The notes: generated by a model from the sequence alone, not told the origin. Positions 2-40,117 are shown, numbered from the stretch's first letter. The stretch: DNA of 44,512 bases from Vulcanimicrobiaceae bacterium (GCA_050733775.1 JBOHTT010000242.1:1-44512); one strand, 5' to 3'. Made by a program: numbers and translations.

Positions 2-1294
2 TCCAGCTACAATCTCGACTGGACGCACGGCTGGCGCGGCGGCCAGCTCACGATCGACGCGTACCGGCAAAATCAAAGCGGCCAGACAATCAACGGTTAT
101 ATCAATGCTCTTGGCGAGCCGCCGGGATACTTGCCCGGCGGCTACCTTTATGAGTTGCAGATCGCATGGTCGCAAGCGTCCGTGTGCGGCGCCGCGTCGT
201 TTTTGCCGGTCGGCTTTTACGTCAACCAGCCGATCAGCGGCACGACGCGGCTCTATCAAGGCATCGATGCCAGCGCGCGCATTCAGCTCGGCCCGAACGT
301 CGTGCTGCTCCCGACGTATGCGCTCAACGTCGCGACGCTCGTCGCCGCCGATGCGCGCTTTGCCGTTCCCGGCTCCGTCCTGATCGTCGGCTCGCAGCTT
401 CCCGGCCATCCCATTCATCGCGCAGCGCTGACGGCCGACGTTCTGGTGCCGAAAACGCGCCTCGAGCTTCTGCTGTCGGGCCAATACACCGGCTCGAACA
501 ACAACCGCGAGCTCGCGCCGTTTACGACGGTTGCCGCCGGTCTTTCGCATCCGCTCGGCCCCGGTCACCTTACGCTGTTCGCGACGAATCTGTTCAATAC
601 GGAAGCCGGCACGTTTTCGACGCTGCAATTCGCGCAGCCGATTCCGCTCGCGGGCGGCGGCGTTACGTCATTTGCGGCGTATCCGTTGCCGCCGCGCACG
701 TATAACATCAGCTACACGTTTGCGCTCGGCAAAGGGGCGACGGCGAGCTCGACGCTCGAAGAGCAAGCGCAGGAAGCTTCGCGCGCCAACGTCGCACCGT
801 CCGAACCCGGCGGACCCGGCTCCGGCACCGGCATGGGTGGACCCGGCGGTCCAGGGTCAGGGACCGGCGGCGGGCGCTTCCGCAACGTGCTGCCGCAAGG
901 CGGCGATCCGTTCGCGCTCGCGCGCAATGCAAACTGCACCGAGCAAGCGCAAGACACCGCGCGGCCGGTGCTGCAGATGATGCGCGATTACGTGAAGGCG
1001 TACGAAGCGCGCCAGCCGCTTCCGCAGACGCCGAATTTCACCGTGACCGCACATCCGGGTTCCACGCCGCCGTACTGGCTCGACTTCGAGCCAACCGATC
1101 TGCAATCGAGTCCGCTCGCGGGCCGCGTGCGTTACATCTTCGCGTGCGCGTACGTTGCGATCTTGACGCCGCAGCAAGCGCAAGACCACGGCATTACGAC
1201 GGACAAAGGCGTGTTCTTCGGCTACGCACCGGGAGTCGGCATCTTCCGCGTGTTACCGCGCGAGCTGCCCTCCGGCGGCGGCCAGGTGCGCTAA
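2..1294 (+). CDS. TonB-dependent-receptor-like outer-membrane beta-barrel, C-terminal portion (5' end outside window), with a ~185-aa non-barrel C-terminal extension
   Basis: The frame is open from base 2 (SSYNLDWTHGWRGGQLTIDAYRQN...). It shows the alternating amphipathic beta-strand pattern typical of TBDT barrels, ending PRTYNISYTFALGKG near base 732. A Gly/Pro-rich tract (GPGSGTGMGGPGGPGSGTGGG) and ~150 more residues follow. The 131 ATG in the ORF track is internal. Confidence 0.55.
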   Translation, partial: SSYNLDWTHGWRGGQLTIDAYRQNQSGQTINGYINALGEPPGYLPGGYLYELQIAWSQASVCGAASFLPVGFYVNQPISGTTRLYQGIDASARIQLGPNVVLLPTYALNVATLVAADARFAVPGSVLIVGSQLPGHPIHRAALTADVLVPKTRLELLLSGQYTGSNNNRELAPFTTVAAGLSHPLGPGHLTLFATNLFNTEAGTFSTLQFAQPIPLAGGGVTSFAAYPLPPRTYNISYTFALGKGATASSTLEEQAQEASRANVAPSEPGGPGSGTGMGGPGGPGSGTGGGRFRNVLPQGGDPFALARNANCTEQAQDTARPVLQMMRDYVKAYEARQPLPQTPNFTVTAHPGSTPPYWLDFEPTDLQSSPLAGRVRYIFACAYVAILTPQQAQDHGITTDKGVFFGYAPGVGIFRVLPRELPSGGGQVR

Positions 1295-1383: not shown

Positions 1384-1403
1384 AGCGGGAGTGCTCCCGC
1401 TTT
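1384..1403 (+). terminator. Possible weak intrinsic terminator for the barrel gene
   Basis: GC hairpin gcggga-gtgc-tcccgc followed by ttt, about 90 nt after the stop at 1294. The T-tract is short and it merges into the adjacent repeat unit. Confidence 0.3.
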
Positions 1404-1437
1404 GTCATCCCGAGCGTAGCGTGCCGCAAGCACGCGT
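1401..1437 (-). repeat. REP-like palindromic repeat, copy A, left part (interrupted by the IS)
   Basis: tttgtcatcccgagcgtagcg plus hairpin gcgtgc-cgcaa-gcacgc. The first 21 nt are the exact reverse complement of 2755-2775. Confidence 0.8.
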
Positions 1438-1443
1438 TGAGCC

Positions 1444-2319
1444 TCACCCGGAATCTAGGCCGCCGAGCGCAGGGGAAAATCGGCTCGTAGATTGACTTCG
1501 AGCTGCGTCTGCAAACTCTTTCGGTGTTTTGTTAGCCAGCATTGAGTGCGGTCGGAAGATATTGTACTCTTGGCGCCAAATCCGCGCAGCTCGACGAACG
1601 TCTTCGATGGTTTCGAAGTAGGATGGATTCAAAAGTTCCCGGCGGACACCGCCGTTAAACGATTCGATGAAAGCATTATCGGTCGGCTTTCCCGGGCGAG
1701 AAAAATCTAAAGTCACCTTGTTCCAGAATGCCCATTGATCCATGGGCTGAGCAACGAATTCGGCGCCATTATCGCACCGCAGCATTTTCGGAGCGGCTCG
1801 CTCTCTTGAAACACGCTGAAGCACTTTGACGACGTCGTTGGAACAGAAACGAGGAGCGACCTCGAGAGCAACGCATTCGCGCGAATAAACATCCAGAACC
1901 GTCAAGAGCCGGTAGGAGCGGCCGTCGGATAGTCGATCGTGCATGAAGTCCATCGCCCAAAGCTCGTCGACCATTTGAGGAACGAACCGCTCCGATCGCG
2001 GAGTTGCTGCTCGCCGGCGATGTGGCATTTTTGCCCGTAAACTAAGGCCTTCCAAGGCGTAGAGACGGTAGACGCGTTTGTCGTTGATCGCAAACCCCTC
2101 ACGGCGCAGAAGCACGCTAATGCGGCGGTATCCATAGCGAACGCGAGCTGCGGCGATTTCCTTGATACGCTCACGCAAGATGCCGTTGAGCGGACCAGCT
2201 TTCGATTTGCAGTAGTATGTTGCGCGATTAAGCTGGATGAGATCGCACGCTCGACGTATCCCAACGCCGAAGGTGCGCACCAGAAAGCCGACACGCTCGC
2301 GCTGCTGAGCCGGCTTCAC
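1444..2319 (-). CDS. IS3-family transposase OrfB (DDE/rve integrase core)
   Basis: Contains WAMDF..., LRCDNGAEF and TDNAFIESFNG (D, D, E region of the rve domain). A GTG start overlaps the orfA stop, and the stop lies inside the terminal IR. Confidence 0.9.
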   Translation of the reverse strand: MKPAQQRERVGFLVRTFGVGIRRACDLIQLNRATYYCKSKAGPLNGILRERIKEIAAARVRYGYRRISVLLRREGFAINDKRVYRLYALEGLSLRAKMPHRRRAATPRSERFVPQMVDELWAMDFMHDRLSDGRSYRLLTVLDVYSRECVALEVAPRFCSNDVVKVLQRVSRERAAPKMLRCDNGAEFVAQPMDQWAFWNKVTLDFSRPGKPTDNAFIESFNGGVRRELLNPSYFETIEDVRRAARIWRQEYNIFRPHSMLANKTPKEFADAARSQSTSRFSPALGGLDSG

Positions 2320-2585
2320 AGTTTTTTTGCGATGATCTCCTGAAGCATCTTGCGATCGAGACTGAGATCAGCGACGATCTGCTTGAGCTTGGCGTTCTCT
2401 TCACGCAACTGCCGCAGCTCGCGAACTTCTGGCGTTCCCAAGCCTCCATAGCGCCGCCGCCAAATGTAGAACGTGTTCTCGTGGATCCCAAGCTTGCGAA
2501 CGATCTCGGCCACCGGCGTGCCGGCCTCGGCTTGCCGTAAAGCGGTCGCGATTTGATCCGGGGAGTGACGTTTTCGCACGGGCAA
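2316..2585 (-). CDS. IS3-family transposase OrfA (HTH plus leucine-zipper-like region)
   Basis: MPVRKRHSPDQIATALRQAEAGTPVAEIVRKLGIHENTFYIWRRRYG... is the typical IS3/IS911 OrfA N-terminus. A coiled-coil LRQLREENAKLKQIVADLSL follows. Confidence 0.9.
   Translation of the reverse strand: MPVRKRHSPDQIATALRQAEAGTPVAEIVRKLGIHENTFYIWRRRYGGLGTPEVRELRQLREENAKLKQIVADLSLDRKMLQEIIAKKL
2322..2328 (-). promoter_or_regulatory. Programmed -1 ribosomal frameshift site (A AAA AAA) joining orfA to orfB
   Basis: The minus strand reads gcA AAA AAA ctg tga. A -1 slip continues as ACT GTG AAG CCG, which is the orfB frame (TVKPAQQ...). Confidence 0.75.
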
Positions 2586-2660
2586 AGCCTCCGGGTTTTG
2601 GATCGGAGTTTTGCCGACCTTTCGCGAGTCTCGCCGGTCCAGAATTCCGGTTCAGGGTCA

Positions 2661-2676
2661 CGCGTAGTCGAGGGAC
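2661..2676 (-). repeat. REP-like repeat, copy A, right part (after the IS)
   Basis: cgcgtagtcgagggac is the reverse complement of 2728-2743. Joining 1401-1437 to 2666-2676 rebuilds a full unit colinear with copy B. Confidence 0.8.
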
Positions 2677-2727
2677 AGCGAGACCGTTCATAGGCAGCCG
2701 TCACCGTGGCCTACTATTATTGAGGCG

Positions 2728-2781
2728 GTCCCTCGACTACGCGCCTCTTCGAGGCGCTACGCTCGGGATGACAAACTGATC
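2728..2781 (+). repeat. REP-like palindromic repeat, copy B (complete unit)
   Basis: gtccctcgactacgc, then hairpin gcgcctc-ttc-gaggcgc, then tacgctcgggatgacaaactgatc. Confidence 0.8.
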
Positions 2782-2792
2782 AGGCGCCCTGT

Positions 2793-2813
2793 GCTCGGGA
2801 TGACAAACTGATC
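2793..2813 (+). repeat. REP-like repeat, copy C (3' half only)
   Basis: gctcgggatgacaaactgatc is identical (21/21) to 2761-2781. Confidence 0.8.
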
Positions 2814-2907
2814 GATGGCGTCGTGAACAAGCATGAAATGCCCGTGCTGTGGGGGCTCGGCCCACCTATCGCGACGCTGAGATCTCGTCAATCGGGACGT
2901 TTACCGC

Positions 2908-2958
2908 GCTCCCTCGACTACGTTTACCCTGAGGAGTCGAATGGGCTCGGGATGACAA
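2908..2958 (+). repeat. REP-like repeat, copy D (diverged full unit)
   Basis: gctccctcgactacg ... gggctcgggatgacaa, ending 2 nt before the stop codon of the CDS at 2961. Confidence 0.7.
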
Positions 2959-2960
2959 CG

Positions 2961-3746
2961 CTAGTCCGCTGAGATTATCGTGCCGACGTCTTCGCCGGCG
3001 AGGGCGCGCGTCACCATGCCGGGTTTGAGGCCGTTGACGATCTGCAGCTCGCGGCATGCGCGTGCGCGCGGCAGATACTCGATGACGACGCGCTCTAAGA
3101 TAAGATCCTGAAGATCGCGCCGCAACAGCTCGCGCGCGCCGATTCGCGGGATGAACCGCGCGGACGGATTCTTCTTGGGGTCGTCATCGTAGAGTCCGTC
3201 TTCGTCTTTGACGAAGATGGCGCGCTTCACGCCGAGCACTTCCGCGGTCAGAAAAACGCCGGCATCGGTGCGATGGCGAGGAATGCGCCCGTTCTCGGTC
3301 GGCTTTTCCCAGTAGCCGAACGGCGGCATGCCGGTCATGATGGGGATGCAGCCCATGTTGAAGTAGAGCGGCAGCTTCTCGAAATCGTCGTGCAGCATAA
3401 AAATGCCGCCGTGCTTGGCGAGCAGCATCTGCAGCATCCGCGCGTTCTGGCGCGGCACGTATCCGCCGAGCGCTGCGAGCACGCCGGTCGGCAACTCGAG
3501 ATCGGACGCCATCGCGTAGATGTGCCGCGCGCGCGTCCCGCCGCCGCAGCAAAGCAATAATTTGTGGCGATCCTTGGCCGCAACGATCTCGTCCAATATC
3601 GGGAAGAGCGCCGAACGACCGCGATCCATGATCGACTGCCCGCCGACCTTGAGGACCTTGACGTCCGGGATCATCGCGACCGCGTCATAATTCAGCCGCG
3701 GTGCGTCACCGGTGAGCGACGCTTCGCCGAGAGCGCTCGCGATCAC
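2961..3746 (-). CDS. Molybdenum storage protein (MoSto) beta-like subunit, amino-acid-kinase fold
   Basis: From memory, it matches Azotobacter MosB motifs: KVGGQSIMDRGR, GGGTRARH, IFVKDEDGLYDDDPKKNPSARFIPRI, NGLKPGMVTRALAGEDVGTIISAD. The start is uncertain. GTG 3746 lies 7 nt after the upstream stop; alternatives are ATG 3806 (overlapping) and ATG 3674. Confidence 0.7.
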   Translation of the reverse strand: MIASALGEASLTGDAPRLNYDAVAMIPDVKVLKVGGQSIMDRGRSALFPILDEIVAAKDRHKLLLCCGGGTRARHIYAMASDLELPTGVLAALGGYVPRQNARMLQMLLAKHGGIFMLHDDFEKLPLYFNMGCIPIMTGMPPFGYWEKPTENGRIPRHRTDAGVFLTAEVLGVKRAIFVKDEDGLYDDDPKKNPSARFIPRIGARELLRRDLQDLILERVVIEYLPRARACRELQIVNGLKPGMVTRALAGEDVGTIISAD

Positions 3747-3753
3747 ACGGCGG

Positions 3754-5763
3754 CTATGCACCGGCGGCCGCTGCCTCGAGCGAGAGAACGCTGGGCACGT
3801 CGCCATGCCGCAGGATCACCGTTCCGACATCTTCGCCTGCAAGCGCGCGTGTCAGCTCGCCCGGCTTCAAGCCGTTCACGATCTGAATGCGCTCGACGTG
3901 ACGCGACGTCTTCCATGCATCGAAGAGCTGACGATCGAGGATGAGCTCCTCCGGCATGTTTGCGAGCAATTCCGGCAGCGTGGTGCGCCGGATTAGCTGC
4001 GCGTCGGCGTGCTTCTTCGGATCTTTGTTGTACAGCCCGTCTTCGTCTTTTACGAAGATGATGCGCCGCATGCCGAGCACTTCCGCGTGGATGAACAATC
4101 CGAAATCGGAACCGTGCGTCGGGAGGGGGCCTTCCTCCGGCGGCGGTTCCCAAAAATGATAGGGCGGAATCGAGATGACGATCGGCAGCATGCCGCCGTC
4201 GAGATAGAGCGGCAGCTCCCAAAAGTGCTCGCGCTGCATGACGATCGAACCCTTTTGCGCGAGCAGCGCGTTGAGGAAGATCGCGTTGGCTTCCTCCATT
4301 GCGCCGATCAGCTGCGCGATGCCGCCGGTCGGCAAACCGAGATCGACCGCAATCGAGATCGTGTGACGCACGCGCGTGCCGCCGCCGACACCGACGATGA
4401 TCTTGTGCTTGCGATGCAATTCGCCGAGCTCGGCAGCGAGCGGTATCACGGCGGTACGCCCACGATCGAAGATGGATTGTCCGCCGATACCGAGGAGCGT
4501 CACATCCGGTAAGATCGCGAACTCATGCTCTGATGCGGTCTTGGCGATGACTTTGCGGTCGACGAGCGACTCCCGCATGAGCGGCGAGGCAATATGCGTT
4601 CGACCGTCGTCGGAAACGAGCTGGCTCATAACGGGGGCAGGTACGCTCGACTTACCGGAAAGACCTTGCATTGCCCGGACCAAGTGGTAGGTGACGTAGC
4701 CGGACGCGAGGCCGAAGAACGTGTGCACGGCGAATCCCGGTATTAAGATTACGTAAGCAAAGGCGGGGGCGATTGCGATGGCCGTCATCGCTAAAATCGT
4801 CGTGAAGCGTGCCGCGCCGATCACACCGCCGAGAATTGTCCATGCCAAAGGGCCCGTGCGATTCGGGTTGCGTGCCATAAACGGAACGCATATATCGCAA
4901 ACGACGCCGGGTGTGACGTGCTTGACGATCTCGAAAATTCCGAAGCGGCCGTCGCCCATCATGAACGCCGCGGTTCCCATGACCAGGCCCGTGAGCGTCG
5001 CACCAAAACGCGAGCGCGTCTTTAGCGCGGCAATGATGTAGAGCGGCGTAAGTATGACGAGCTTGTGTCCGGGCGCAAACGGAATGCTCGGCAAAATTTT
5101 CAACGCGCGAATGCCGAGCATCGAAAGCGCCATGCCGGCGATAACCGCGGCATCGTGTCCGGCGGCGCCGTGCGTTGCTGCGAGATATTCTTCCGCGCGC
5201 GCGATTTGCGAATCGATGCGGCGAACGATCGGCGACACTTCGCCGCGCGCGAGTTTTCTCGCGGACTCCCAAAAGCTTTCGTGCGGTTGCTCGTCTGCGC
5301 CGCCGCGTCCGCCACCGGTTCCGCGTCCGCCGCCCATCCCGCGACCGCCACCGCCGCCTTGCGCGACGAGCGTCAACACCGCGTCGATGCACGCGGAGAT
5401 CAGCACCGGTGCGCCGAGTTTCTGCAGTCCGGAGGCGATCGCGCGCGGATCGCCCGCTCGCGCAATTTGCGATGCGAGAATAATGGAGAGAATGCGCAGC
5501 GTCATGAACGCGCCGTCGATAGCACTTGCGACGCTCCAGCCGGTGATCGCGTACGTCACGATCAGAAAACCGGCAAAGCTCGCAAACTTCACCAGCTGGC
5601 GTAAGAATGCGCGCGGCGTGAGCCCGACCGCGAACCAGAGCGCCACCTGCACGAGCAGTACCGCAACGATCGCCGTAGGCGCGTGGACGAAGAACACGCC
5701 GACTGCGACGGCGAGAAGGTAAAGAATGCGTAAGCGGGGATCGAGATCGAACTGCCGGACCAT
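3754..5763 (-). CDS. Fusion protein: N-terminal polytopic membrane module (~aa 1-365, CbiQ/EcfT-like start) plus C-terminal MoSto alpha-like amino-acid-kinase domain (~aa 385-669)
   Basis: A single uninterrupted 669-aa ORF. The N-terminus has DPRLRILYLLAVAVGVFF and about 10 hydrophobic helices, split by GGGGGRGMGGGRGTGGGRGG. The C-terminus is a paralogue of the next gene (GIGGQSIFDRGR, GGGTRVRH, IFVKDEDGLYNKDPKK, NGLKPGELTRALAGEDVGTVI). Confidence 0.75.
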   Translation of the reverse strand: MVRQFDLDPRLRILYLLAVAVGVFFVHAPTAIVAVLLVQVALWFAVGLTPRAFLRQLVKFASFAGFLIVTYAITGWSVASAIDGAFMTLRILSIILASQIARAGDPRAIASGLQKLGAPVLISACIDAVLTLVAQGGGGGRGMGGGRGTGGGRGGADEQPHESFWESARKLARGEVSPIVRRIDSQIARAEEYLAATHGAAGHDAAVIAGMALSMLGIRALKILPSIPFAPGHKLVILTPLYIIAALKTRSRFGATLTGLVMGTAAFMMGDGRFGIFEIVKHVTPGVVCDICVPFMARNPNRTGPLAWTILGGVIGAARFTTILAMTAIAIAPAFAYVILIPGFAVHTFFGLASGYVTYHLVRAMQGLSGKSSVPAPVMSQLVSDDGRTHIASPLMRESLVDRKVIAKTASEHEFAILPDVTLLGIGGQSIFDRGRTAVIPLAAELGELHRKHKIIVGVGGGTRVRHTISIAVDLGLPTGGIAQLIGAMEEANAIFLNALLAQKGSIVMQREHFWELPLYLDGGMLPIVISIPPYHFWEPPPEEGPLPTHGSDFGLFIHAEVLGMRRIIFVKDEDGLYNKDPKKHADAQLIRRTTLPELLANMPEELILDRQLFDAWKTSRHVERIQIVNGLKPGELTRALAGEDVGTVILRHGDVPSVLSLEAAAAGA

Positions 5764-5814
5764 TCCAGCTACGTTCGGTGCCCGTTACCCCGCTCTTCTG
5801 CGCGTCGATAGGTC

Positions 5815-5864
5815 GGGACAGCGGCTGCGACGGGGGCTCGGATCCCCGGCACAGCCACTGTCTC
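5815..5864 (-). promoter_or_regulatory. Two-tier RNA stem-loop in the narG to MoSto-fusion intergenic region
   Basis: Outer arms 5817-5827 and 5852-5862 pair over 11 bp, with one G-U in the minus-strand RNA. Inner arms are cgggg (5831-5835) and ccccg (5844-5848). No U-tract follows. Confidence 0.4.
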
Positions 5865-5878
5865 CGTTTAGGCCGTCC

Positions 5879-8800
5879 TTACCACTCCAGTTTTTCGAGT
5901 GCCCGGACGACGCAATGCGTGTCGCGCGTCAAGATGCCGATCGGTCCCCAGTAGTTGAACCCGTACGTCCACTGTCCGTAGCCGCCGGCTAATTGCAGCG
6001 GATTGATGCGTGTTCGCGTAAGGCTATTGTGACCGCCGGCGCGCCTGCCGCCGCGAATTTGCGACTTCGGCATCGAGATCGTGCGATCGGGGGCGTGATA
6101 GATCATGCACGTTCCCGGTTGCACGCGCGCGCTTACGGCTGCGCGCGTGACCATGACGCCGTTGTCGTTGTAGACCTCGACCCACTGATTGTCGACGATG
6201 CCGATCTTCGCCGCATCCTTGTCGTTGATCCAACACGGCTCCATGCCGCGCGACAGCGTGAGCATGCGGAGATTGTCGTAGTAGGTCGAGTGGATGTGCC
6301 ACTTGCCGTGCGGCGTGATGTAGTTCAGGATCAACGACCTGTCGTCGACAGGGCTGTTGACGATGTCGCCGGTCAAGTGCGGGTCGAGCTTCGGCTTGTA
6401 CGTCGGGAAGTTCTCGCCGAAGTCGATGTACCAAGGATGATCCATGTAGAACTGCTCGCGGCCGGTAACCGTGCGCCACGGGACGAGCATGTCGACGTTG
6501 ATGCACCACGCCGAGTACGCGCGGCCATCGTTGATCATGCCGGTCCAGCACGGACTGATGAGCAATCTGCGGACTTGCCTCGTAAGGTCTCCGAATGTCG
6601 TCCGGGCTCCGCGGATCCCCTCCGCAAGCTGCGTGAGCGGAAGCCCGGTGACGTGTTCCTCATGCTCGAAGCCGGAGTACGAGACGTCGCCGTTCGTTTC
6701 GGGCGCGAGGTGGAGGATCGTGTTGCAGACGTCGAGCGGATCGTCGAGGCTCGGGTACTTCTTCCCGTCCCACTCGACGCAACGCAGTTTGCGCGAATCG
6801 GGTGAGATCGAGACCGGCGCTTCGAGCATCTGATCGTAGAATTTTGCGACGTCGATTTGCACGCCGTTGAAGCTAATCCCGTCGGATTTGACGTTCGGTC
6901 CGAGTGTGATGTATTTGTTGTAGATTTGCCGATAGTCGCGCTCGAGGACGCGCAAGTGCGGCATCGTTTTGCCCGGAATCGCTTCGCACTGACCATCCCA
7001 CCAGTTGAGGACTTGCGGCTGCGCGCACTCATCCGGCGTGTCGTGCTGCAACGGGAACGAGTTGATGTCTTTAACCGGCGCGGGGAAGACGAGCGGCGCC
7101 AGCTCGCTCACCTTCTTGGCGAACGTCTTGAAGATGTCCCAATCGCTCTTCGACTCCCACACCGGCGGCACGGCTTGGCCGAGCGGGTGGATGAACGAGT
7201 GCAGGTCCGTGGAGTTCAGGTCGTTCTTCTCGTACCACATCGCCGTCGGCAGAACGATGTCGGAGTAGAGTGCCGACGTGTCCATGCGGAAATTGATGTC
7301 GACGACGAGATCGAACTTGCCGCGCGGCACGGGCTCGCGGAACTTCACGCGCTTGACTTTGTCCCGCGCATGCTCTTCGGCAACCGCGTTGTCGTGCGTG
7401 CCGAGGTAGTGCCGCAGGAAGAACTCGTGGCCTTTGGCGCTCGCCATGATGGCGTTGCCGCGCCAGATGAACCACACGCGCGGCCAGTTCTCGGGCGCGT
7501 CCGGATCTTCGACCGAGAATTTCAATTTGCCGGACTTGATTTGGTCGGTCGCCGCTTTGACGATGTCGGCGTCCGTCTTTGCACCGGATTCTTGCGTCTC
7601 ACGCACCCAATCCAGCGGGTTGCGGTTGAACGCAGGATAGTGCGGCATCCATCCGCGCTTCACGGAGTCGCAGAAGATGTCCATCGCATGGCCCTTTGCA
7701 AACTTCGCATCGGGCGGCACGGATGAATACTCCGTGAAGTCGCCTTCGTAGCGCCACATGTCGCCGTTTGTGTAGTGCCAAACCGGCGACTGCGTGCGGC
7801 GGGGTGGCTTCTGCCAGTCGAGCGCAAACGCAATTGCGGACCACGGAGCGGCCGGCGCAAGCTTTTCTTGGCCGACGTAGTGGTTCAGACCGCCGCCGTT
7901 GACGCCGCAGCAGCCCGTGAACATCATCGCCGTGATCGGTCCGCGATAGCTGAGACCGTTGTTGTACCAATGGTTGAGGCTGGCGCCGGTGATGCACATC
8001 GAGCGGCCGTTGGTGTGCTCGGCGTTGGTTGCGAACTCGCGCGCGAAGCGAATGACCGTGTCGCGGCCGATGCCGGTGTACTGCTCTTGCCAGGCCGGCG
8101 TGTACGGCATCTTTTCGTCGTTGTAATCCTTCGGATAATCGCCGGGCAGGCCGCGGCCGACGCCGAAGTGCGCGTTGAGCAGATCGAAGGTCGTCGTGAC
8201 GGGAATGCGTTGCCCGTCTTTCGTCTCGATGTACTTGATCGGCACGCCGCGCAAGGACGTCTTACGCGACGCGAACTCGAAGAATTCGACCTGCGCGACC
8301 TCGTCACTATTGTTGAGGAAGCTCAGTGCGGGATCGATCCGGCTTCCGTCCTTGCCGTCCTCGAGCTTGAGGTTCCACTGCCCGGCTTTCTTCTGCCATC
8401 GGTGACCGGCGAAGCCCATCGGCATCTTTGGCGCGCCGGTTTGCTGATCCCACATCAGCATCTTCCAATCGCCGAGCTCCTCGTCGGCGTACTTTGCGAT
8501 GCGGTTCGCGCGGAACAGTTGACCGGGTTTGAGACCCTTCGTGCCTTTCGTCAATTCGATCAGCAACGGCGCGTCGCTGTACTGCTTGACGTACTTGTCG
8601 AAGTACGGCACTTTACGATCGAAGTGATACTCTTTGAGGATAACGTGGTTAACTGCGACCCATAAGGCCGTGTCTTGGCCTGCTTTGATCGGGATCCACA
8701 TATCCGAGTACTTGGCAACTTGGTTGAAATCGGGCGAGATCACGACGAACTTCGAGCCGTTCGCGCGCGCCTCGGAAATGAAGTGCACGTCGGGCGTGCG

Positions 8801-9529
8801 CGTCATGTTCAGGTTCGCCGCGATCGACACGATATACGACGAGTTGTACCAGTCGGCACCCTCGCACACGTCGGTCTGGTCTCCCCACACTTCGGGGAAC
8901 GAATTCGGCAGATCGGCGTACCAATCGTAGAAGCTCATGTTCACGCCGCCGATGAGCTGCAGGAAGCGCGCGCCACCGGCGTACGATGCAAACGAGAACG
9001 CAGGGATCGGCGCGAAGCCCATGATGCGATCGGGGCCGTACGTCTTTGCGGTATATAATGAGGCGGCGGCGATTAGCTCGGTCGCCTCGTCCCACGTGCT
9101 GCGTCGATAGCCGCCCTTGCCGCGCGCGCGCTGCCAGCGCTTGCGCTTGGTCTCGTCTTGTACGAGCGAGCCCCAAGCCTCGATTGGGTTGTTGTGTTGA
9201 GATTTCGCTTGCCGCCAAAAATCGAGCAGCTTACCGCGAATGTACGGATACTTGACGCGAATGGGGCTATAGACGTACCACGACGCCGAAATGCCGCGCT
9301 GACATCCGCGTGGCTCGTACGGCGGAAGACCTTTTTCGAGCAGCGGATAGTCGGTCTGCTGCATCTCCCACGTGATGATGCCGTCCTTGACGTAGACCGC
9401 CCAAGAACAACCACCCGTGCAATTGACGCCGTGCGTGCTGCGCACGACCTGATCGTGCTGCCACCGGTTACGGTAGAATTCTTCCCAGCGACGAGACTTC
9501 GGATCGACCAGGTCCTGAATCCATCCCAT
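5879..9529 (-). CDS. narG: Respiratory nitrate reductase alpha-subunit-type molybdoenzyme (NarG/NxrA-like, DMSO-reductase family type II)
   Basis: 1216 aa. The N-terminus [43 protein letters not shown] carries the H-x3-C-x3-C FS0 motif, with EPRGC downstream. FYDWYADLP matches the E. coli region holding the Mo-ligand Asp. A GAGGA RBS lies upstream. Confidence 0.9.
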
Positions 9530-9581: not shown

Positions 9582-9630
9582 TGTTGACGTTTACTCTAAC
9601 ACGTAGTTTTATACAGTCAACAATGTTGAC
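9582..9630. promoter_or_regulatory. Candidate operator set in the narG / marR-like divergent intergenic region
   Basis: A perfect 7-1-7 palindrome gtcaaca-a-tgttgac lies at 9616-9630. An extra tgttgac half-site at 9582-9588 is 42 bp from the one at 9624. The region is locally AT-rich. Confidence 0.45.
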
Positions 9631-9679: not shown

Positions 9680-10189
9680 GTGATGCTATGCGGAGGGCGA
9701 ACGATGCAGACGATGCAGACCCGCACCCGGCGCGCCAAACCCTCCGGCGATGGCGCGTTCGAACGTCACCGCGATACCAATTTGCGCCGGCTGCTTGTGG
9801 CCGCTACGCGGGCTCTCAACCGGCACATCACCCAGGAGCTCAACCGGCAAGGTTATCGGGACACCCGGCCGGGCCACGCCGCACTCCTTGCAAACCTCGA
9901 CCTCGCCGGTAACAGCGTGACCGAGGTCGCCGAGCGAGCGCAGATCTCCAAACAGGCCATGGCGCGGCTCGCCGTCGAGCTGGAAGACATGGGGATCATC
10001 TCACGACGCGTCGACGGCTCGGACAAACGCGCGCTCACGCTGTCGTTCACCAAACGCGGTCGCGATTTGATCAAGAGCACGGTGTCGATCGTCGACGAGA
10101 TCGAGCGCGAGCTCTCGCAAGCAATCGGCGACCGTTCGATGACGACGCTCAAGCGTAGCCTCGTAACCGTCGCAAAGCTCGATCGCTAG
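9680..10189 (+). CDS. MarR-family transcriptional regulator
   Basis: Winged-HTH pattern NSVTEVAERAQISKQAMARLAVELEDMGIISRRVDGSDKRALTLSFTKRG. The start is ambiguous: in-frame ATGs at 9680, 9683, 9704 and 9713. Confidence 0.8.
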   Translation: MMLCGGRTMQTMQTRTRRAKPSGDGAFERHRDTNLRRLLVAATRALNRHITQELNRQGYRDTRPGHAALLANLDLAGNSVTEVAERAQISKQAMARLAVELEDMGIISRRVDGSDKRALTLSFTKRGRDLIKSTVSIVDEIERELSQAIGDRSMTTLKRSLVTVAKLDR

Positions 10190-12339
10190 CCGGAAGCTCT
10201 TTCTCTTTTCGTAACCCGGTACACGGTGCGCACGCCCTTGACGCTCTCGAGCTTGCGCAACAGCTTGTGAAGCTGATCGAGATTTTCGATTTGCAGCGTC
10301 AGAGAGGTGATGGCGATGTCCTTTTTCACGCGCGCCGTCACCGACGATGCCGAGCTCTTCAGCTCGGCGCACACAGCCATGATGTCTTGCAGCAGACCGG
10401 CACGGTCGAGCGCTTCGACTTCGATATCGACCGCGTGCGTCGCCGTGATGTTCTCGGCCCAGCTAGCTTGCAATATGCGCTCCGGCTGCGCGTTCATGTA
10501 GGCGACGTTGGGGCAGTCCGCGCGATGGACCGACACGCCCTTGCCGATCGTCACGAATCCCATGATGGGATCGCCCGGAACCGGGCTGCAGCACTTCGAG
10601 AGCCGCACGAGCACGTCGTCGACGCCGGCGATGCGGATGCCGGAACTATTGCGCGCGACGCGTCGCGGCGCCGGGCGCGGTACCGTCGTGATGTCGACGA
10701 TATTCGAGCTTTTCAGCTCTTCGCTAAGACGCTGCGCGACCGACACCGCTGACGCATCGCCGAACCCCATCGCGGCGTAGAGATCGGCCGGCGTCGCATA
10801 GTTCATCTTGTGAGCGATGCGCTCGAGCGCTTCGCCACGCGCGGCGTCGGGACGAATGTGCTGGCGAACGAGCTCGGCTTCGAGCGCTTCCTGACCGGCC
10901 AGCACGTTCTCTTCCTTGCGCTCTTTGCGGAACCACTGCTTGATCTTGTGTTTGGCGCTCGACGTGCGAACGATGCCGAGCCAATCCAGCGACGGACGCG
11001 CGGCCTTCTGCGTGAGAATTTCACAGATGTCGCCGTTGCGAAGCTGGTAGTCCAGCGGAATGATCTTGCCGTTCACCTTTGCGCCGATGCAGCGATTGCC
11101 GACGTCGGTGTGGACGTGGTAGGCGAAATCGAGCGGCGTGGACGCGCTCGGCAGCGAGAACACGTCACCTTTGGGCGAGAAGATGAAAACCTGATTCTCG
11201 AACAGATCGAGCTTCAGGTTTTCCATGAACACCCGGGAATCGCGCGCGTCGCTTTGCCATTCGAGGAGCGAGCGCAGCCACGCGAGCTTGTTCTCAAACG
11301 TGTCTTGCTTGCCGCCCTCTTTATAGCGCCAGTGCGCCGCGATGCCGTACTCGGCGGTGCGGTGCATGTCCCACGTGCGAATCTGCACTTCGAGCGGATC
11401 GCCGCCGGGCCCCACGACCGTCGTATGCAACGACTGGTACATGTTCGGCTTCGGCATCGCGATGTAGTCTTTGAAGCGGCCCGGAATCGGCTTCCAGCGC
11501 GCGTGGACTTCACCGAGGGCGCCGTAGCAATCTTTGACCGAATCGACGATGAGGCGAACGGCCGTAAGATCGAAGATCGTCGCGAAATCGCGACCCTTCT
11601 TCATCTTATTGTAGATCGAATAGAAATGCTTGGGGCGCCCCGTCGTCTCGTTCTGGATGCCGACGTGATCGAGGCTTTCCCGCAGTACGGTAATGACGCT
11701 ACCGACGGCTTCTTCTCGTTCGCTCTTCCGCTTCGCGACGCGTTCGGCGATATCGCGATATGCATCGGGATCGAGGTAGCGCAGGCACAAATCTTCGAGC
11801 TCGGAACGGATTTTCCAAATACCGAGCCGATGCGCGATCGGTGCGTAGATCTCGAGCGTCTCGCGCGCAATGGCTTGACGCTTCTGCTCCGGCAAGCTCG
11901 AAAGCGTCCGCATGTTATGGAGGCGGTCGGCGAGCTTGATAATGATGACGCGGATGTCCTTTGCCATCGCCAGGAACATCTTGCGCAAATTCTCGACCTG
12001 CGCATCTTCCTTCGATTGATACGGAATGCGCGTCAGCTTCGTGACGCCTTCGACGAGGGTCGCGATCTCGGTGCCGAATTCGGCCGCGACTTGCTCGCTG
12101 GTGACGACGGTGTCCTCGACGACGTCGTGCAACAGGGCCGCCGCGATCGTTGCGCGGTCCAATTCCAGCTCCGCGAGCTCCTCCGCGACGGCGAGCGGGT
12201 GCTCGATGTATGCCTCGCCGGAGGCCCGCTCTTGGTCCCCGTGCGCCTGATCGGCCCAGTCGTAAACGCGCCGCAGCCACGCCCCGTCGAGGGACGTGTC
12301 ATAGGCCTGGACCTTACCGATCAGCGCTTCTATCGACAT
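10186..12339 (-). CDS. rel: Bifunctional (p)ppGpp synthetase/hydrolase (RelA/SpoT family)
   Basis: 717 aa with an HD hydrolase motif (HPLAVA...LLHDVVEDT), a RelA/SpoT synthetase region, a TGS region and a C-terminal ACT-like region. Confidence 0.92.
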   Translation of the reverse strand: MSIEALIGKVQAYDTSLDGAWLRRVYDWADQAHGDQERASGEAYIEHPLAVAEELAELELDRATIAAALLHDVVEDTVVTSEQVAAEFGTEIATLVEGVTKLTRIPYQSKEDAQVENLRKMFLAMAKDIRVIIIKLADRLHNMRTLSSLPEQKRQAIARETLEIYAPIAHRLGIWKIRSELEDLCLRYLDPDAYRDIAERVAKRKSEREEAVGSVITVLRESLDHVGIQNETTGRPKHFYSIYNKMKKGRDFATIFDLTAVRLIVDSVKDCYGALGEVHARWKPIPGRFKDYIAMPKPNMYQSLHTTVVGPGGDPLEVQIRTWDMHRTAEYGIAAHWRYKEGGKQDTFENKLAWLRSLLEWQSDARDSRVFMENLKLDLFENQVFIFSPKGDVFSLPSASTPLDFAYHVHTDVGNRCIGAKVNGKIIPLDYQLRNGDICEILTQKAARPSLDWLGIVRTSSAKHKIKQWFRKERKEENVLAGQEALEAELVRQHIRPDAARGEALERIAHKMNYATPADLYAAMGFGDASAVSVAQRLSEELKSSNIVDITTVPRPAPRRVARNSSGIRIAGVDDVLVRLSKCCSPVPGDPIMGFVTIGKGVSVHRADCPNVAYMNAQPERILQASWAENITATHAVDIEVEALDRAGLLQDIMAVCAELKSSASSVTARVKKDIAITSLTLQIENLDQLHKLLRKLESVKGVRTVYRVTKRERASG

Positions 12340-12397
12340 ACGCGTTAACGCTTATCTAAGCACAACCCGTCGTCGCCCGGAAAGGGTTAGGCCCGGC

Positions 12398-12919
12398 TTA
12401 GTACTTCATGAAGGCGGTGACCGAGTGCCGGCCCAGCGCCTTCCGGCCGGCCAGCGCCTCGAGCTCGATAAGGAAGGCAAACTCCACGATCTCGGCCCCG
12501 AGGCGCTCGACCAGGCGGCCGGTCGCCGCGGCGGTCCCGCCCGTCGCCAGCACGTCGTCGACGACGAGAACCCGCTTGCCGCGGCCCACCGCGTCGTCGT
12601 GGACCTCGAGCGAGTTGGTGCCGTACTCGAGGGCGTATTCCTCGGTCATTTTCGAACCCGGAAGCTTGCCCGGTTTGCGGACGGGGACGAAGCCGGCATC
12701 GAGCTCGTACGCGATCGGTGCAGCCAAAATATAGCCGCGGGCCTCGATACCGACCACGACGTCGATTCGCTCCTTTTGAAAGCGCTGCACGAAGAGGTCG
12801 ATCGTCGCGCGAAAGCCCTGCGGGTCTTTGATCAGCGGCGTGATGTCCCGGAATTGTATTCCGGGGATTGGGAAATCGGGGATCGTTCTTATCAACCCCT
12901 GGAGATCGGCGATTTGCAC
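12398..12919 (-). CDS. apt: Adenine phosphoribosyltransferase
   Basis: IPDFPIPGIQFRDITPL and the PRPP-binding motif VLVVDDVLATGGT. 173 aa, immediately downstream of rel. Confidence 0.9.
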   Translation of the reverse strand: MQIADLQGLIRTIPDFPIPGIQFRDITPLIKDPQGFRATIDLFVQRFQKERIDVVVGIEARGYILAAPIAYELDAGFVPVRKPGKLPGSKMTEEYALEYGTNSLEVHDDAVGRGKRVLVVDDVLATGGTAAATGRLVERLGAEIVEFAFLIELEALAGRKALGRHSVTAFMKY

Positions 12920-13033
12920 GCGCGGCGCTTCGCTCGATGTCCGAGAGAACCATTCGCCCGGGCCAGGCGTTTAAGAAAGCAGAGTCTCCCGGCACTGCGC
13001 CGCGTCGCGCACGCCGGGTAGAAAGGGATTGCT

Positions 13034-13336
13034 GTGAAGCTGAAGATGCTGACGACCGGCGTGTTGTGCGCCACGCTTGCAATCGGAACCGTATCGCCCG
13101 CGCTCGCCGACGGCGGCGCCGCCACGCGGAATTTTGTGCTTTTGGGCGCCGCAGCCGCGATCGGCATTACGAATTGGAATCACAAGCGGCATATCAAGCA
13201 AGAAGAGATGCACGAGCAGGGCCGGCGACAGGAAGCGTACCGCGAGTGGTATTACAAAAAATACGGCACGTACCCGACGGACGCACAATTTCACGACTGG
13301 TACGTGAAGACGTACGGGGTCCCGCCGTCTAACTAG
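13034..13336 (+). CDS. Small secreted/membrane protein with a tandem aromatic motif
   Basis: GTG start with AAGGGA upstream. Signal peptide ...SPALA-DG, a hydrophobic stretch, then REWYYKKYGTYP and HDWYVKTYGVPP. Confidence 0.55.
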   Translation: MKLKMLTTGVLCATLAIGTVSPALADGGAATRNFVLLGAAAAIGITNWNHKRHIKQEEMHEQGRRQEAYREWYYKKYGTYPTDAQFHDWYVKTYGVPPSN

Positions 13337-13342
13337 AATGGG

Positions 13343-14212
13343 TTGACCCTCGGGAACCCTGATCCTAAATATCGCCGTCGTCTCCTCATCGCGCTCGCCC
13401 TCGCAGTTGCTGTCCACGAGATTGTGATCGGAGCGGGCGGATTTTTGCGTTTTCCCGAAGCGCGCGAGCCGTCGTCGCCGCAGCGCGTGATCTTGATCGA
13501 GCGTCGCGTTGCGGTCGTGACGCCCGCGCCGACACCGACGCCGACCGCGCCCCCGCGCGTGACACCCGCACCGAAGCGTGCCGTCGCAGCACCGCGCGCG
13601 ACGATGCTTGCGCGTACGCGAAGCGGCGGCTCGCGCGGCGGACCAAAGCTGGAAATTCACACGCCGAAGCTCGTGCATCACAATACGCCGATGCCGGTCG
13701 TTCGCGCGACGGAACAACCGTCAAAGAAGCTGATCGCGCAGACGGGTAGCGGCGCAACGCCTGCGCCCGGAATCGGCAGCTCCTCGGGAATCGGAACGGG
13801 GCAAGGCGCAGGTGCCGGCAGCCAGCAAGGCCCCGGAGGCGGGACGGGCGGCACCGGAAGCGGTTCGCAAAATTCCGACGCGCCGTGCGGCGAGCCGCTC
13901 TTCTACGGCTTGCACGCACAGTTCAATCCCAAAGACGGCAGCTTTGATGAGGCGGTCCGGGTTCAACTGCGACTGTCCAACGGACAAACGGTCACCGGTG
14001 AGTTTCACTATCCGTGGCACTATGCAAGCGAGCGCGAAAACCCGTTCTCCCCGAACTACGGCGGCAGCCCCGACGACGCCATTCCCGCCAAACTTCCGCC
14101 GCCGGGCTTCGACCTCTCCAAGGAGCCGCTCGCGGTGCAGTTGACCTTGCAAAAGACCTTGCCGAACGGCAGGACGCTGTTCCAGCCTTGCCCGACCGCA
14201 AAGGTGCCGTAA
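13343..14212 (+). CDS. Membrane-anchored Pro-rich/Gly-rich protein with TonB-like layout
   Basis: N-terminal TM LLIALALAVAVHEIVIG, then a Pro-rich spacer TPAPTPTPTAPPRVTPAPKR, a Gly-rich tract and a ~110-aa C-terminal domain. The TTG start is uncertain. Confidence 0.5.
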   Translation: MTLGNPDPKYRRRLLIALALAVAVHEIVIGAGGFLRFPEAREPSSPQRVILIERRVAVVTPAPTPTPTAPPRVTPAPKRAVAAPRATMLARTRSGGSRGGPKLEIHTPKLVHHNTPMPVVRATEQPSKKLIAQTGSGATPAPGIGSSSGIGTGQGAGAGSQQGPGGGTGGTGSGSQNSDAPCGEPLFYGLHAQFNPKDGSFDEAVRVQLRLSNGQTVTGEFHYPWHYASERENPFSPNYGGSPDDAIPAKLPPPGFDLSKEPLAVQLTLQKTLPNGRTLFQPCPTAKVP

Positions 14213-14256
14213 AGCACACAGTCCCATACGCTTGCTTGCCGAAGATAGAGACTGAT

Positions 14257-14931
14257 ATGTTTGCGGACCTCATCGATTGGTTCGGCTCGCGCACCCAAGA
14301 AAAACGCGAAGCGCCACGGACGCGGCAGCCGTTCAAAGTCGCCTTTTCGACGAACGGCGTGACGTGGAATCAGGCCACGGGCATCGATATCGGGGTCGGC
14401 GGTATCTCCGTCTTATCGGCGCAGGGGTTTCACAAGACGGAGCTCGATTTCAAGCTGACGATCGAGCGCCGCGAAATCCCCTGCCGTGTCGCGGTCATTC
14501 GTCACGAAGGCGCGATCCAGCAAGGCAGAAAGCTGCACAAGTACGGCCTGAGGTTCGTCTCGATGAAAAAAGACGATCAGGACGCCGTGATGCGCTGGCT
14601 GCACGGCAAGCCGCTCGAGCCGGTCAATCGTGCCAAAGAAGAGCTGACGGCAGTTCGCATGGCGCCCGACGACGTCGCGCGGCTGTTTCCGAAAGCCGTG
14701 CAAGCGCGATTGCATGACGAGCTCATCAATCGGCACCGGCTCGCGCCGCACAAACACAAGCACGAACCGTTGGTTGCGTACTACTACGGTGGCGCGACGA
14801 TGGTCGCGGACAAACGGCTGCATCGGCTGACGATCGAATCGAAGGTCGTTCACCACGATCACACGGAAGCTCGATTCCGCACCCGTTTCGCATTCGACGA
14901 CAACGGAAGCGAGATTACGGTTCTAGACTAG
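14257..14931 (+). CDS. PilZ-domain protein (paralogue 1)
   Basis: REAPR (RxxxR) and DIGVGG (DxSxxG with Ser replaced by Gly). Its C-terminal half is homologous to the neighbouring gene. ATG 14257 is preferred over the 14014 extension, which overlaps the previous CDS. Confidence 0.7.
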   Translation: MFADLIDWFGSRTQEKREAPRTRQPFKVAFSTNGVTWNQATGIDIGVGGISVLSAQGFHKTELDFKLTIERREIPCRVAVIRHEGAIQQGRKLHKYGLRFVSMKKDDQDAVMRWLHGKPLEPVNRAKEELTAVRMAPDDVARLFPKAVQARLHDELINRHRLAPHKHKHEPLVAYYYGGATMVADKRLHRLTIESKVVHHDHTEARFRTRFAFDDNGSEITVLD

Positions 14932-15647
14932 GTCTTCTCCGGAATCTGCTGCTCCATCGGAATCGTCACGATGCGTGCCAGCTTGTCGTCGAAATACAGC
15001 TGGGTGACGTAGTTGTTGACGCTGTGCGGGTGCACGACGCGAGACTCCACGCGAAGGGCGTGCATCTCCAGACCCTGCCGCTGCGTCTTTCCGAGATAGC
15101 GCAACTTCACGAGCGGTTCGGTACCTGAGTTCATCGGGGCGAGGCGCTTCATCTTCACAAGCTCGCCGAGCAAGCGCTCCAGCGCCGCCTTCGGCAGCAA
15201 TCGCGCGGCGTCGTCGGGACGCGCCTGTAACTGCGTGAGATCGAGCGTCAATCGATCGTTGGCCTTCACCGGCTGGTTTTGCACGAATCGTGCCAGCGCG
15301 TCCCAATGATCGGAGGTAATGCCGACGAACTTACCGCCGACGCGCCATGCATTACCGCCGCGCAGCTTACCAGGGACGGAGTCCCCGGCCTTTTGTACCA
15401 GTGCGGTCACCGTATGCTCGTCGAGCGTCAAGAGCACCATAAACTCGTCATGCGTGACCTCGTCGTTCGTCAGAATGCCGAGGCCGCCGACGCTGATGTC
15501 GACCGCGAGCGCGGGCAGCAACGTGGTGCCGCGATCCAGCGAATACTGAACCTTAAAAGGCTTTTTCACACGAGGGTGTGCGCGCTCGACGTGACCGCGT
15601 TTCTTGTTACGGTCGGAACCGAAAAAAGGCACTGGCAAAAACCGCAC
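14928..15647 (-). CDS. PilZ-domain protein (paralogue 2)
   Basis: RAHPR (RxxxR) and DISVGG (DxSxxG). The C-terminal region PDDAARLLPKAALERLLGELVKMKRLAP...LRVESRVVH parallels paralogue 1. Confidence 0.75.
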   Translation of the reverse strand: MRFLPVPFFGSDRNKKRGHVERAHPRVKKPFKVQYSLDRGTTLLPALAVDISVGGLGILTNDEVTHDEFMVLLTLDEHTVTALVQKAGDSVPGKLRGGNAWRVGGKFVGITSDHWDALARFVQNQPVKANDRLTLDLTQLQARPDDAARLLPKAALERLLGELVKMKRLAPMNSGTEPLVKLRYLGKTQRQGLEMHALRVESRVVHPHSVNNYVTQLYFDDKLARIVTIPMEQQIPEKT

Positions 15648-15754
15648 CCGTTGAGTGTGGCGGGGAAGCCTGCAGTTTCGGCTGCGTACCGTCCGCCCCC
15701 CTGCCCGGGCAGATAAAAAGGCGGAGTACGGCCCCGACCGATAGTTATTCCATA

Positions 15755-26824: not shown

Positions 26825-26830
26825 GGTCGT

Positions 26831-27868: not shown

Positions 27869-27877
27869 GAGCCCCTC

Positions 27878-29074: not shown

Positions 29075-29109
29075 GGGGACGGTAAACTATGACGCGCTTG
29101 CTGTGATTC

Positions 29110-35852: not shown

Positions 35853-35862
35853 GGAGAACCGT

Positions 35863-36738: not shown

Positions 36739-36768
36739 GAGAAGCCGAACGAGGAGCTAGTCGAAGCG

Positions 36769-38072: not shown

Positions 38073-38134
38073 CCCACAACACGGTCGGCCTCGCCCGGCG
38101 GGGGTCGCAAACGCGGAGGTGAACATGGCAAGTA

Positions 38135-40111: not shown

Positions 40112-40117
40112 GAGGTA

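Follow-up and report, generated by a model that had tools for sequence, protein, structure and literature searches.

A stand-alone narG/nxrA-type gene beside a molybdenum storage protein-like cassette in an Eremiobacterota lineage

We analyzed a stretch of 44,512 nucleotides (nt) from a Vulcanimicrobiaceae bacterium (GCA_050733775.1, JBOHTT010000242.1:1-44512), referred to below as the window. Its minus strand carries a gene for a NarG/NxrA-type alpha subunit (narG) that stands apart from any narH, narJ or narI, followed by a pair of genes (mos) related to those of the molybdenum storage protein (MoSto) of Azotobacter vinelandii, the first of which is fused to a membrane domain. We consider it probable that these are two independent Mo-related units, a functional stand-alone alpha subunit and a MoSto-like cassette, brought side by side by rearrangement. 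The best-supported view is of an alpha paralog that stands alone and is kept by selection, as is known from this enzyme clade, next to and probably co-transcribed with a Mo-storage cassette that in its own right is widespread and undescribed. The arrangement is as follows.

5879..9529, minus strand: stand-alone narG/nxrA-type alpha subunit gene, 1216 amino acids (aa), of the cytoplasmic Nitrobacter-type Nar/Nxr clade
5764..5878, minus strand: narG-mos spacer, 115 nt, with a GC-rich hairpin at about 5814-5866 and no U-tract
4609..5763, minus strand: membrane domain of the fusion protein (aa 1-385), with an EcfT/CbiQ-like N-terminal half, a Gly-rich linker and a six-helix S-component-like half
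3754..4608, minus strand: MoSto alpha-equivalent domain of the fusion protein, amino-acid-kinase fold (2ogx_B 218 bits, 2ogx_A 164 bits)
2961..3806, minus strand: MoSto beta-like gene (2ogx_B 252 bits), with a likely start at GTG 3761

The identity of the alpha subunit was established by an NCBIfam model search, in which it scored 1411 bits against the TIGR01580 narG equivalog (cut-off 1084) and fell far under the cut-offs of the sister models DMSO_red_II_alp, EbdA and DmsA. It aligned end to end with Escherichia coli NarG (1q16_A, 1187 bits, residues 12-1216), its start aligning from residue 28 of the E. coli protein, and scored lower against perchlorate reductase (436 bits), ethylbenzene dehydrogenase (181) and periplasmic anammox-type NxrA (102). 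The motifs HGVNCTGGC (H-x3-C-x3-C), EPRGC and FYDWYADLP are present, and the alignment with E. coli NarG showed that the FS0 His/Cys ligands, the EPRGC Cys and the Mo-ligand Asp of DWYADLP are all kept. No hydrophobic stretch was found at the N-terminus, and the test for a twin-arginine translocation signal peptide is accordingly negative, indicating a cytoplasmic orientation. The nearest NarG sequences among the matches listed come from Eremiobacterota/Vulcanimicrobiaceae metagenome-assembled genomes (82-87% identity), and among GTDB representative genomes a scan recovered 80 loci with NarG identities of 61-85%, hosted by Eremiobacterota, Chloroflexota, Actinomycetota, Nitrobacter, Nitrococcus, Methanoperedens and others. 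The window gene belongs to the "cytoplasmic NarG/NxrA" group, which includes the Nitrobacter nitrite oxidoreductase; its sequence gives no catalytic direction.

Searches with tblastn found no NarH, NarJ or NarI homologs anywhere in the window, and a motif scan found no CxxCxxCxxxC ferredoxin motif in any open frame of the whole window. The operon order of an alpha gene followed by Fe-S beta, chaperone and membrane gamma genes is therefore not found at the window narG. The initial annotation, made from the sequence alone, had described a full-length, motif-intact NarG/NxrA-like gene and no ferredoxin-motif or NarH/NarJ/NarI-like frame nearby, then a 115-bp structured spacer, a membrane-MoSto fusion and a MoSto beta-like gene downstream on the same strand, and finally a repeat/insertion sequence (IS) cluster. 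Our model scores, motif searches and boundaries bear this description out in each part, and the absence of partner genes extends to the entire window.

Among relatives, a complete operon is the usual arrangement. Most of those at 60-88% NarG identity, and nearly all with sufficient flank, have narH, narJ and narI beside the alpha gene; the order cytochrome c-narG-narH-narJ-narI was seen in most of 91 loci at 60-85% identity, again in nearly all with sufficient flank. A cytochrome c-nxrA-(nxrX)-nxrB-narJ-narI operon of the cytoplasmic Nxr has been described (PMC12823411). The Eremiobacterota operon has the Nitrobacter-style order cytochrome c-narG-narH-narJ-narI (L001-L007, L012-L020, L024, L068, L090, L173, L174) and is preceded by a GAF-BTAD regulator and often moeA, with a formate/nitrite transporter and moaA after it. 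In two long-read assemblies (L015 11654-13154, L016 11682-13186) narH was recovered in two tblastn segments, which probably reflects sequencing frameshift errors and not pseudogenes. The background statement of the initial annotation, that the beta gene directly follows the alpha gene, does not hold throughout the clade. The single chromosome contig of Nitrobacter sp. TKz-YC01 holds both a full operon (L072) and an alpha gene standing alone (L082); the same pairing is seen in Nitrococcus mobilis (operon L080, stand-alone alpha L081), and stand-alone nxrA paralogs are known from Nitrobacter (PMC13101473).

To place the window gene, we calculated neighbor-joining trees. Its ortholog in L008, a 167-kb JGI contig, is 92% identical, and a third stand-alone copy (1216 aa) lies at the same relA-marR locus in L172. 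These three copies were monophyletic in 200/200 bootstraps. Their clade is sister (98%) to P0250 plus P0001, the latter a NarG at 87% identity to that of the window, and the next group out is P0243/P0245 (100%). Both P0250 (L173) and P0245 (L174) are part of complete cytochrome c-narGHJI operons. Since the stand-alone copies nest among copies in such operons, the stand-alone narG can be taken to descend from an operon-borne alpha gene of the same family. A NarG fragment, P0254 (SRR5579875, a run that also yielded the fusion), was considered as a second canonical copy and rejected, as it is closest to the stand-alone type; it looks like the same stand-alone gene with an assembly gap. Exact-sequence look-ups gave no record for P0001 or for the window fusion protein.

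Across 74 other NarG sequences from the clade, the majority of them shown within full operons, 451 alignment columns have a conservation of 97% or more, and the window NarG keeps 449 of these. The two columns changed in stand-alone copies, M291V and E929D, are both conservative substitutions, and operon-borne Eremiobacterota copies individually change 0-4 of the same columns. Over residues 1-75, a stretch that includes the FS0 ligands and corresponds to the region of E. coli NarG adjoining the NarJ-binding tail, the window protein shows 100% identity with operon-borne Eremiobacterota copies. Because the conserved columns and these first 75 residues match the operon-borne copies, there is no sign of a changed partner interface. 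Between orthologs of the window and L008, at a dS of about 0.6-0.75, dN/dS indicated purifying selection on narG (0.076), the fusion gene (0.093) and mosB (0.075), the values for relA and marR being 0.037 and 0.095; narG gave an omega of 0.09-0.10 against L012. From the phylogeny, the conservation pattern and the Nitrobacter/Nitrococcus precedent, we infer that partners encoded elsewhere in the genome are the best reading of the stand-alone narG.

The second unit begins with the fusion gene (3754-5763, minus strand), whose 669-aa product consists of membrane residues 1-385 and MoSto-matching residues 392-651. Both MoSto-like subunits were assigned to PF00696. E-values for the fusion and the beta-like protein were 1.6e-63 and 5.7e-74 to 2ogx_B, and 5e-47 and 2e-42 to 2ogx_A; the window thus holds two adjacent paralogous amino-acid-kinase-fold genes homologous to MosA/MosB. 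For the mosB-like open reading frame, the listed ATG 3806 is probably too far upstream. A start at GTG 3761 gives 266 aa, in line with orthologs of 266-267 aa, and produces an 8-nt overlap with the end of the fusion gene, which the ortholog shares and which suggests translational coupling. No redox cofactor motifs were found in the MoSto-like proteins.

Inspection of an alignment with MosA (a sequence identical to 2ogx_A) and MosB revealed that the position of alpha-His140, a MosA ligand of the three-fold-axis cluster, is Tyr in all cassette sequences aligned. For this cluster, one structural account gives only "three histidines" (PMC4504029). The MosA residues that it reports as covalent Mo8 cluster ligands, Glu129 and His156, are both kept in the first subunit in the window and in four other loci (QREHF, PPYHFWE), and the second MoSto-like subunit resembles beta at these ligand positions. 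We take the pair to be a genuine MoSto relative in alpha-then-beta order, diverged at one cluster site. MoSto was described as being without known homologs in a study of the Azotobacter protein (PMC6448029).

To get a broader picture of the cassette, we scanned metagenomes with the fusion protein and found 79 loci (L092-L170), 59 of them unfused, from soil and freshwater metagenomes; GC-rich loci were annotated by a GC3-aware gene call. The order membrane protein, mosA-like, mosB-like is kept in all loci with enough sequence, an example being L097 7992-13235. The Mos subunits are 70-80% identical to those of the window and the membrane protein about 50%, its stand-alone homologs being some 400 aa long. 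Fused versions occur only in close relatives of the window, and none of the 79 loci has narG near the cassette except the L008 contig. The MoSto-like family is small, with 84 representatives among 1.84 billion clusters at E <= 1e-30. Sequence reaches 900 nt or more beyond mosB in 33 loci, and 26 of these have a ModA-like gene, as a rule with ModB-like and ModC-like genes behind it; representatives scored 193 bits for modA (TIGR01256, cut-off 62) and 221 bits for modB (TIGR02141, cut-off 183), and the third gene had ModC as its best match, under its cut-off. A molybdate-handling role is independently supported by this modABC context. In the window, L008, L171 and L172, no modA or modB was found, and there were only generic ABC ATPase matches. 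The mos cassette is an independent, widespread unit. We found no literature linking MoSto with ECF (energy-coupling factor) transporters or describing the cassette, which appears to be undescribed in the searchable literature. Of the two parts of a further proposal in the initial annotation, that partners lie elsewhere and that narG is served by a dedicated Mo supply, we would retain the first as the better reading; the word "dedicated" has to be dropped, as the cassette normally accompanies modABC and not narG.

Upstream of the unfused cassette there are recurrent genes without a family match, of about 427 aa and about 592 aa, the latter ending in one case in a MYXO-CTERM sorting signal. They are accompanied by one or two c-type cytochrome-like genes on the same strand in 9-16 of 35 long loci (L097 3921-7966, L126 7338-7856, also L114, L116, L130, L146 and L147). 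The MYXO-CTERM protein and the names of the stand-alone membrane homologs point to Myxococcota for many unfused versions.

The membrane domain was characterized by structure prediction. The AlphaFold model of fusion residues 1-385 had a mean predicted local distance difference test score (pLDDT) of 85.9, and the C-terminal half modeled alone reached 86.5. The best PDB matches of residues 1-385 in Foldseek were EcfT chains and the S component ThiT, with weak E-values (to 4huq_T, probability 0.97 but E 0.8). For the C-terminal half, the top six matches were all S components (template modeling score, TM, 0.51-0.63; probability 0.96-1.0; E 0.03-0.5). PF02361 (CbiQ) was detected in 40 of 78 family members (best E 2.6e-10) and PF09605 in 4 of 78; the window domain itself had no Pfam match, and its TIGR02454 match (E = 0.0018) was far below the cut-off. 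The two halves are separated by a Gly/Arg-rich low-complexity linker, GGGGGRGMGGGRGTGGGRGG (5334-5403, minus strand, in the region of aa 121-143), which has low model confidence and varies in length among relatives while its position is conserved family-wide. In these models, the membrane partner looks like the T plus the S component of an ECF transporter in one chain. No EcfA or EcfA' genes were found next to the cassette; the nearby ABC ATPase in relatives is ModC-like only and paired with modB. With its ECF-like partner, the cassette is the most novel element of the region, though of a function proposed from likeness and context. Tentatively, and against our own leaning, it might be a molybdate/tungstate uptake-and-storage machine, an ECF-type module driven by amino-acid-kinase-fold ATPases that is fused, and under an extra-NarG promoter, here. 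If so, metal would be loaded directly into a membrane-docked storage cage and the nitrate- or nitrite-converting enzyme would get its own metal feed.

The linkage of the two units was examined by comparing loci. On L008, the order is PilZ, PilZ, ..., relA, marR (divergent), narG, fusion, mosB, and relA-marR-narG-fusion-mosB is present in L008 to L010, the last of which belongs to GCA_037025125.1. Because the narG-mos junction recurs in these independent JGI, ENA and NCBI assemblies, it is not an assembly artefact or chimera. The initial annotation had staked its reading partly on such recurrence, and the narG-mos finding is real and reaches beyond one contig; in the window and in the sister species, 115 nt separate mos from narG. 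The flanks of the two units contain the following features.

9680..10189, plus strand: divergent MarR-family regulator gene (PF12802)
9593..9620, minus strand: candidate sigma-70-like promoter, TTGACT-16-TAGAGT with TG, in the narG-marR divergent intergenic region, from a consensus scan only
2783..2961, no strand: two additional solo copies of the terminal repeat GCTCGGGATGACAA of the IS, lying between that element and mosB
1401..2775, minus strand: IS3-family insertion sequence with 21-nt perfect inverted repeats (1401-1421/2755-2775), between mosB and the convergent TonB-receptor-like gene
2..1294, plus strand: 3' portion of a CarboxypepD_reg/TonB-receptor-like gene truncated at the contig end, with 79% nt identity to L008 12883-14174

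The marR gene adjoins the stand-alone narG in all three loci carrying that narG (window, L008, L172). The TonB-receptor-like gene is part of a mos-linked block in the relatives L008 and L171. The IS3 element, whose inverted-repeat outer ends lie 1375 nt apart, encodes a transposase (1444-2319; NF033516 230 bits, cut-off 160) with rve domains, and is absent from the orthologous 94-nt gap in L008. Beside narG there is a signaling cluster (window 10186-17605) of relA/spoT, two PilZ-domain genes and a CHASE3-GAF-GGDEF diguanylate cyclase gene; synteny with L008 and L172 covers relA, PilZ-PilZ and marR. Farther out lie two NitT/TauT-type ABC transporter sets with NMT1 binding proteins (window 23688-30351 and 35112-41173), adjoining Rieske oxygenase, FAD oxidoreductase and amidohydrolase genes; none is a molybdate transporter.

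The hairpin in the spacer has 25 pairs (-53.3 kcal/mol, z = -2.97). In L008 it is kept with substitutions on both arms, the stem still being near-perfect, and it is retained in L172, where mos is absent. Since L172 keeps the hairpin without mos and L171 has mos without narG, the hairpin goes with narG, and the mos block forms a unit of its own. In a consensus scan, the spacer yielded nothing that resembles a terminator or a promoter, and no promoter-like sequence was seen in the 50 nt leading up to the mos start. A molybdenum cofactor (Moco) riboswitch or other known RNA was considered for the spacer and the whole window and rejected, with no Rfam match at gathering thresholds; at E up to 5, both gave chance-level matches only. 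An upstream region, or box, that precedes mos in L171 and L092 is missing at the window mos. Given this missing region, the absence of a terminator or promoter in the spacer and the promoter-like site before narG, the most economical reading would be read-through co-transcription of narG and mos, damped by the hairpin.

We propose that a rearrangement in one Eremiobacterota lineage placed narG and the mos cassette adjacent. The first unit has its own divergent MarR regulator and its conserved 3' hairpin. Its NarG most likely matures with NarJ and docks on NarH/NarI from genes elsewhere, a docking in trans modeled on the Nitrobacter stand-alone nxrA paralogs, which are assumed to do likewise. 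In the second unit, a MoSto-like heteromer, with its alpha-like subunit fused to the ECF-like membrane protein, most likely takes up or stores molybdate at the membrane, a role suggested by homology and gene context. If mos is read through from narG past the hairpin, Mo storage would rise together with the Mo-demanding enzyme. The link between narG and mos is useful at most and not obligatory.

Several observations weigh against the proposal. L172 has the stand-alone narG and hairpin without mos: its DNA is 95% identical to that of L008 over marR, narG and the hairpin, ending 7 nt short of where mos would start, and it then jumps 7.97 kb to a leuA-like gene, the mos and TonB-receptor-like block being gone. 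Conversely, L171, a 3.27-Mb contig with a fusion 77% identical to that of the window, has fusion-mosB and no narG, and adjoins the same TonB-receptor-like genes as L008. Because narG occurs without mos in the one and mos without narG in the other, functional coupling cannot be a requirement, and the two may be neighbors by chance. Even without a U-tract, the hairpin could terminate transcription, in which case the consensus scan would have missed a mos promoter. As for the partners, no narH, narJ or narI lies within the 44.5-kb contig, the sole part of the genome read. Finally, the canonical operon of L174 and the stand-alone narG of L172 were recovered from one metagenome, but their composition does not link them to a single genome, as their flanks differ in GC content (66.4% vs 63.3%) and their tetranucleotide correlation (r 0.967) is similar to that of different-genome pairs.

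The absence of mos from L172 is most simply a deletion, since L008 has the narG-mos order in common with the window, which is more distant from it than L172 is. The presence/absence difference spans L172 13652-14071 and L008 9993-17961. The junction in L172 holds GCTCGGGGTGACAA, which resembles the terminal repeat GCTCGGGATGACAA of the window IS3, and L008 17600-17960 contains tandem arrays of related repeats of about 35 nt.

One alternative takes the units as incidental neighbors in the full sense, adjacent only through rearrangement, with narG transcription stopping at the hairpin, mos read from a promoter of its own and no coupling between the two. The hairpin staying with narG in L172, the mos genes lacking narG in L171 and some 79 other loci, and the mos block traveling with the TonB-receptor-like gene and not with narG all speak for it. 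However, the adjacency and exact spacer are kept between the window and L008 despite the synonymous divergence given above, and this alternative has to contend with a hairpin lacking a U-tract, with the want of a promoter-like site or of the L171/L092 box before mos, and with the dependence of both units on one metal. We hold it possible, at rather low probability.

We think it unlikely that narG is instead the only alpha gene of its genome, moved by an IS out of a cytochrome c-narHJI operon and still assembling with its products in trans. The gene tree alone cannot separate a relocated ortholog from a paralog, the region is flanked by the IS3 element and IS-derived repeats, which also mark the junction of the deletion in L172, and no second narG is tied to the same genome (the r of 0.967 between L172 and L174). 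Against such a split of the operon stands the coexistence of stand-alone alphas with full operons in Nitrobacter and Nitrococcus (PMC13101473). In addition, relA-marR-narG is stable in three lineages and includes its own regulator, which fits an established extra copy better than a recent break.

The initial annotation had also raised a new way of wiring. On such a reading, the alpha subunit would work without NarH/NarI through another partner, possibly the membrane-MoSto complex. The lack of a beta, delta or gamma gene within 44.5 kb and the conservation of the arrangement in two species are what it has in its favor. A changed interface should give lineage-specific substitutions, but the N-terminal FS0 region is identical to that of operon-borne copies and the conserved columns (449/451) are as in them. 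The MoSto-like proteins are moreover devoid of redox cofactor motifs, and L172 has a stand-alone narG without mos. New wiring of NarG is thus not supported, and we regard it as very improbable. That narG is a decaying duplicate, a pseudogene in the making as the lost operon context and the nearby IS might suggest and as the initial annotation had envisaged as a counter-case, is rejected as practically negligible by its intact 1216-codon frame, its intact ligands, omega values of 0.076 against L008 and 0.09-0.10 against L012, and losses of conserved columns no greater than in operon-borne copies.

In soils, where Eremiobacterota are common, gene-centric counts of nitrate reducers and nitrite oxidizers are inflated by stand-alone NarG/NxrA genes. 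That such genes are conserved, selected paralogs rather than decaying copies matters for the reading of narG/nxrA surveys. MoSto has so far been treated as an Azotobacter peculiarity tied to nitrogenase. Finding a MoSto-related pair in a widespread cassette, together with a membrane protein and modABC and, in one lineage, downstream of a gene for a Moco enzyme, broadens the likely role of Mo storage to molybdopterin enzymes. The cassette also offers a concrete system for how molybdate passes from a transporter into a storage cage.

Compared with known systems, the window NarG shares its end-to-end alignment and cofactor ligands with the alpha subunit of E. coli NarGHJI, whose N-terminus is about 16 residues longer, the shorter form being a trait of the whole clade. 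E. coli has narH, narJ and narI after the alpha gene, whereas the window narG lacks them, and the canonical relatives of the window NarG, unlike E. coli NarGHJI, have a cytochrome c gene upstream. The stand-alone nxrA copies of Nitrobacter and Nitrococcus belong to the same NarG/NxrA clade (66-67% identity) and, like the window gene, have no Fe-S subunit gene alongside. They differ in coming from another phylum than the Eremiobacterota of the window, and in adjoining DabA, SulP, transposase or SNF2 genes; no MoSto-like genes were found beside them. Those organisms have a full operon elsewhere in the genome, whereas the window data are one contig.

Azotobacter vinelandii MosA/MosB (2OGX, 4F6T) are likewise encoded by adjacent paralogous amino-acid-kinase-fold genes in alpha-then-beta order. 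In the multiple alignment, MosA is 33-37% identical to the window subunits and MosB is closer, at about half of the aligned positions; both window subunits score better against MosB than against MosA. Azotobacter MoSto has alpha-His140 in place of the cassette Tyr, and the alpha-equivalent of the cassette is fused (window) or adjacent (elsewhere) to a membrane protein of about 400 aa. MoSto is a soluble (alpha-beta)3 cage loaded with polyoxomolybdate at the expense of ATP; with its 385-aa membrane domain, the window alpha-equivalent is at least no free soluble protein. Azotobacter MoSto supplies the synthesis of the iron-molybdenum cofactor, FeMo-co (PMC6448029), and the context of the cassette is one of Moco enzymes and modABC; no nitrogenase genes were found in the window or among the annotated neighbor genes of the cassette loci. 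Among ECF transporters, EcfT/CbiQ can be likened to the N-terminal half of the membrane domain (PF02361 in homologs; 4huq_T), and the S components 5edl, ThiT and 4huq_S to the C-terminal six-helix half, with weak Foldseek E-values of 0.03-1. ECF transporters have separate T and S components and use the ABC ATPases EcfA/A', whereas the window has T-like and S-like parts in one chain, and the cassette has two MoSto-like ATP-binding subunits instead.

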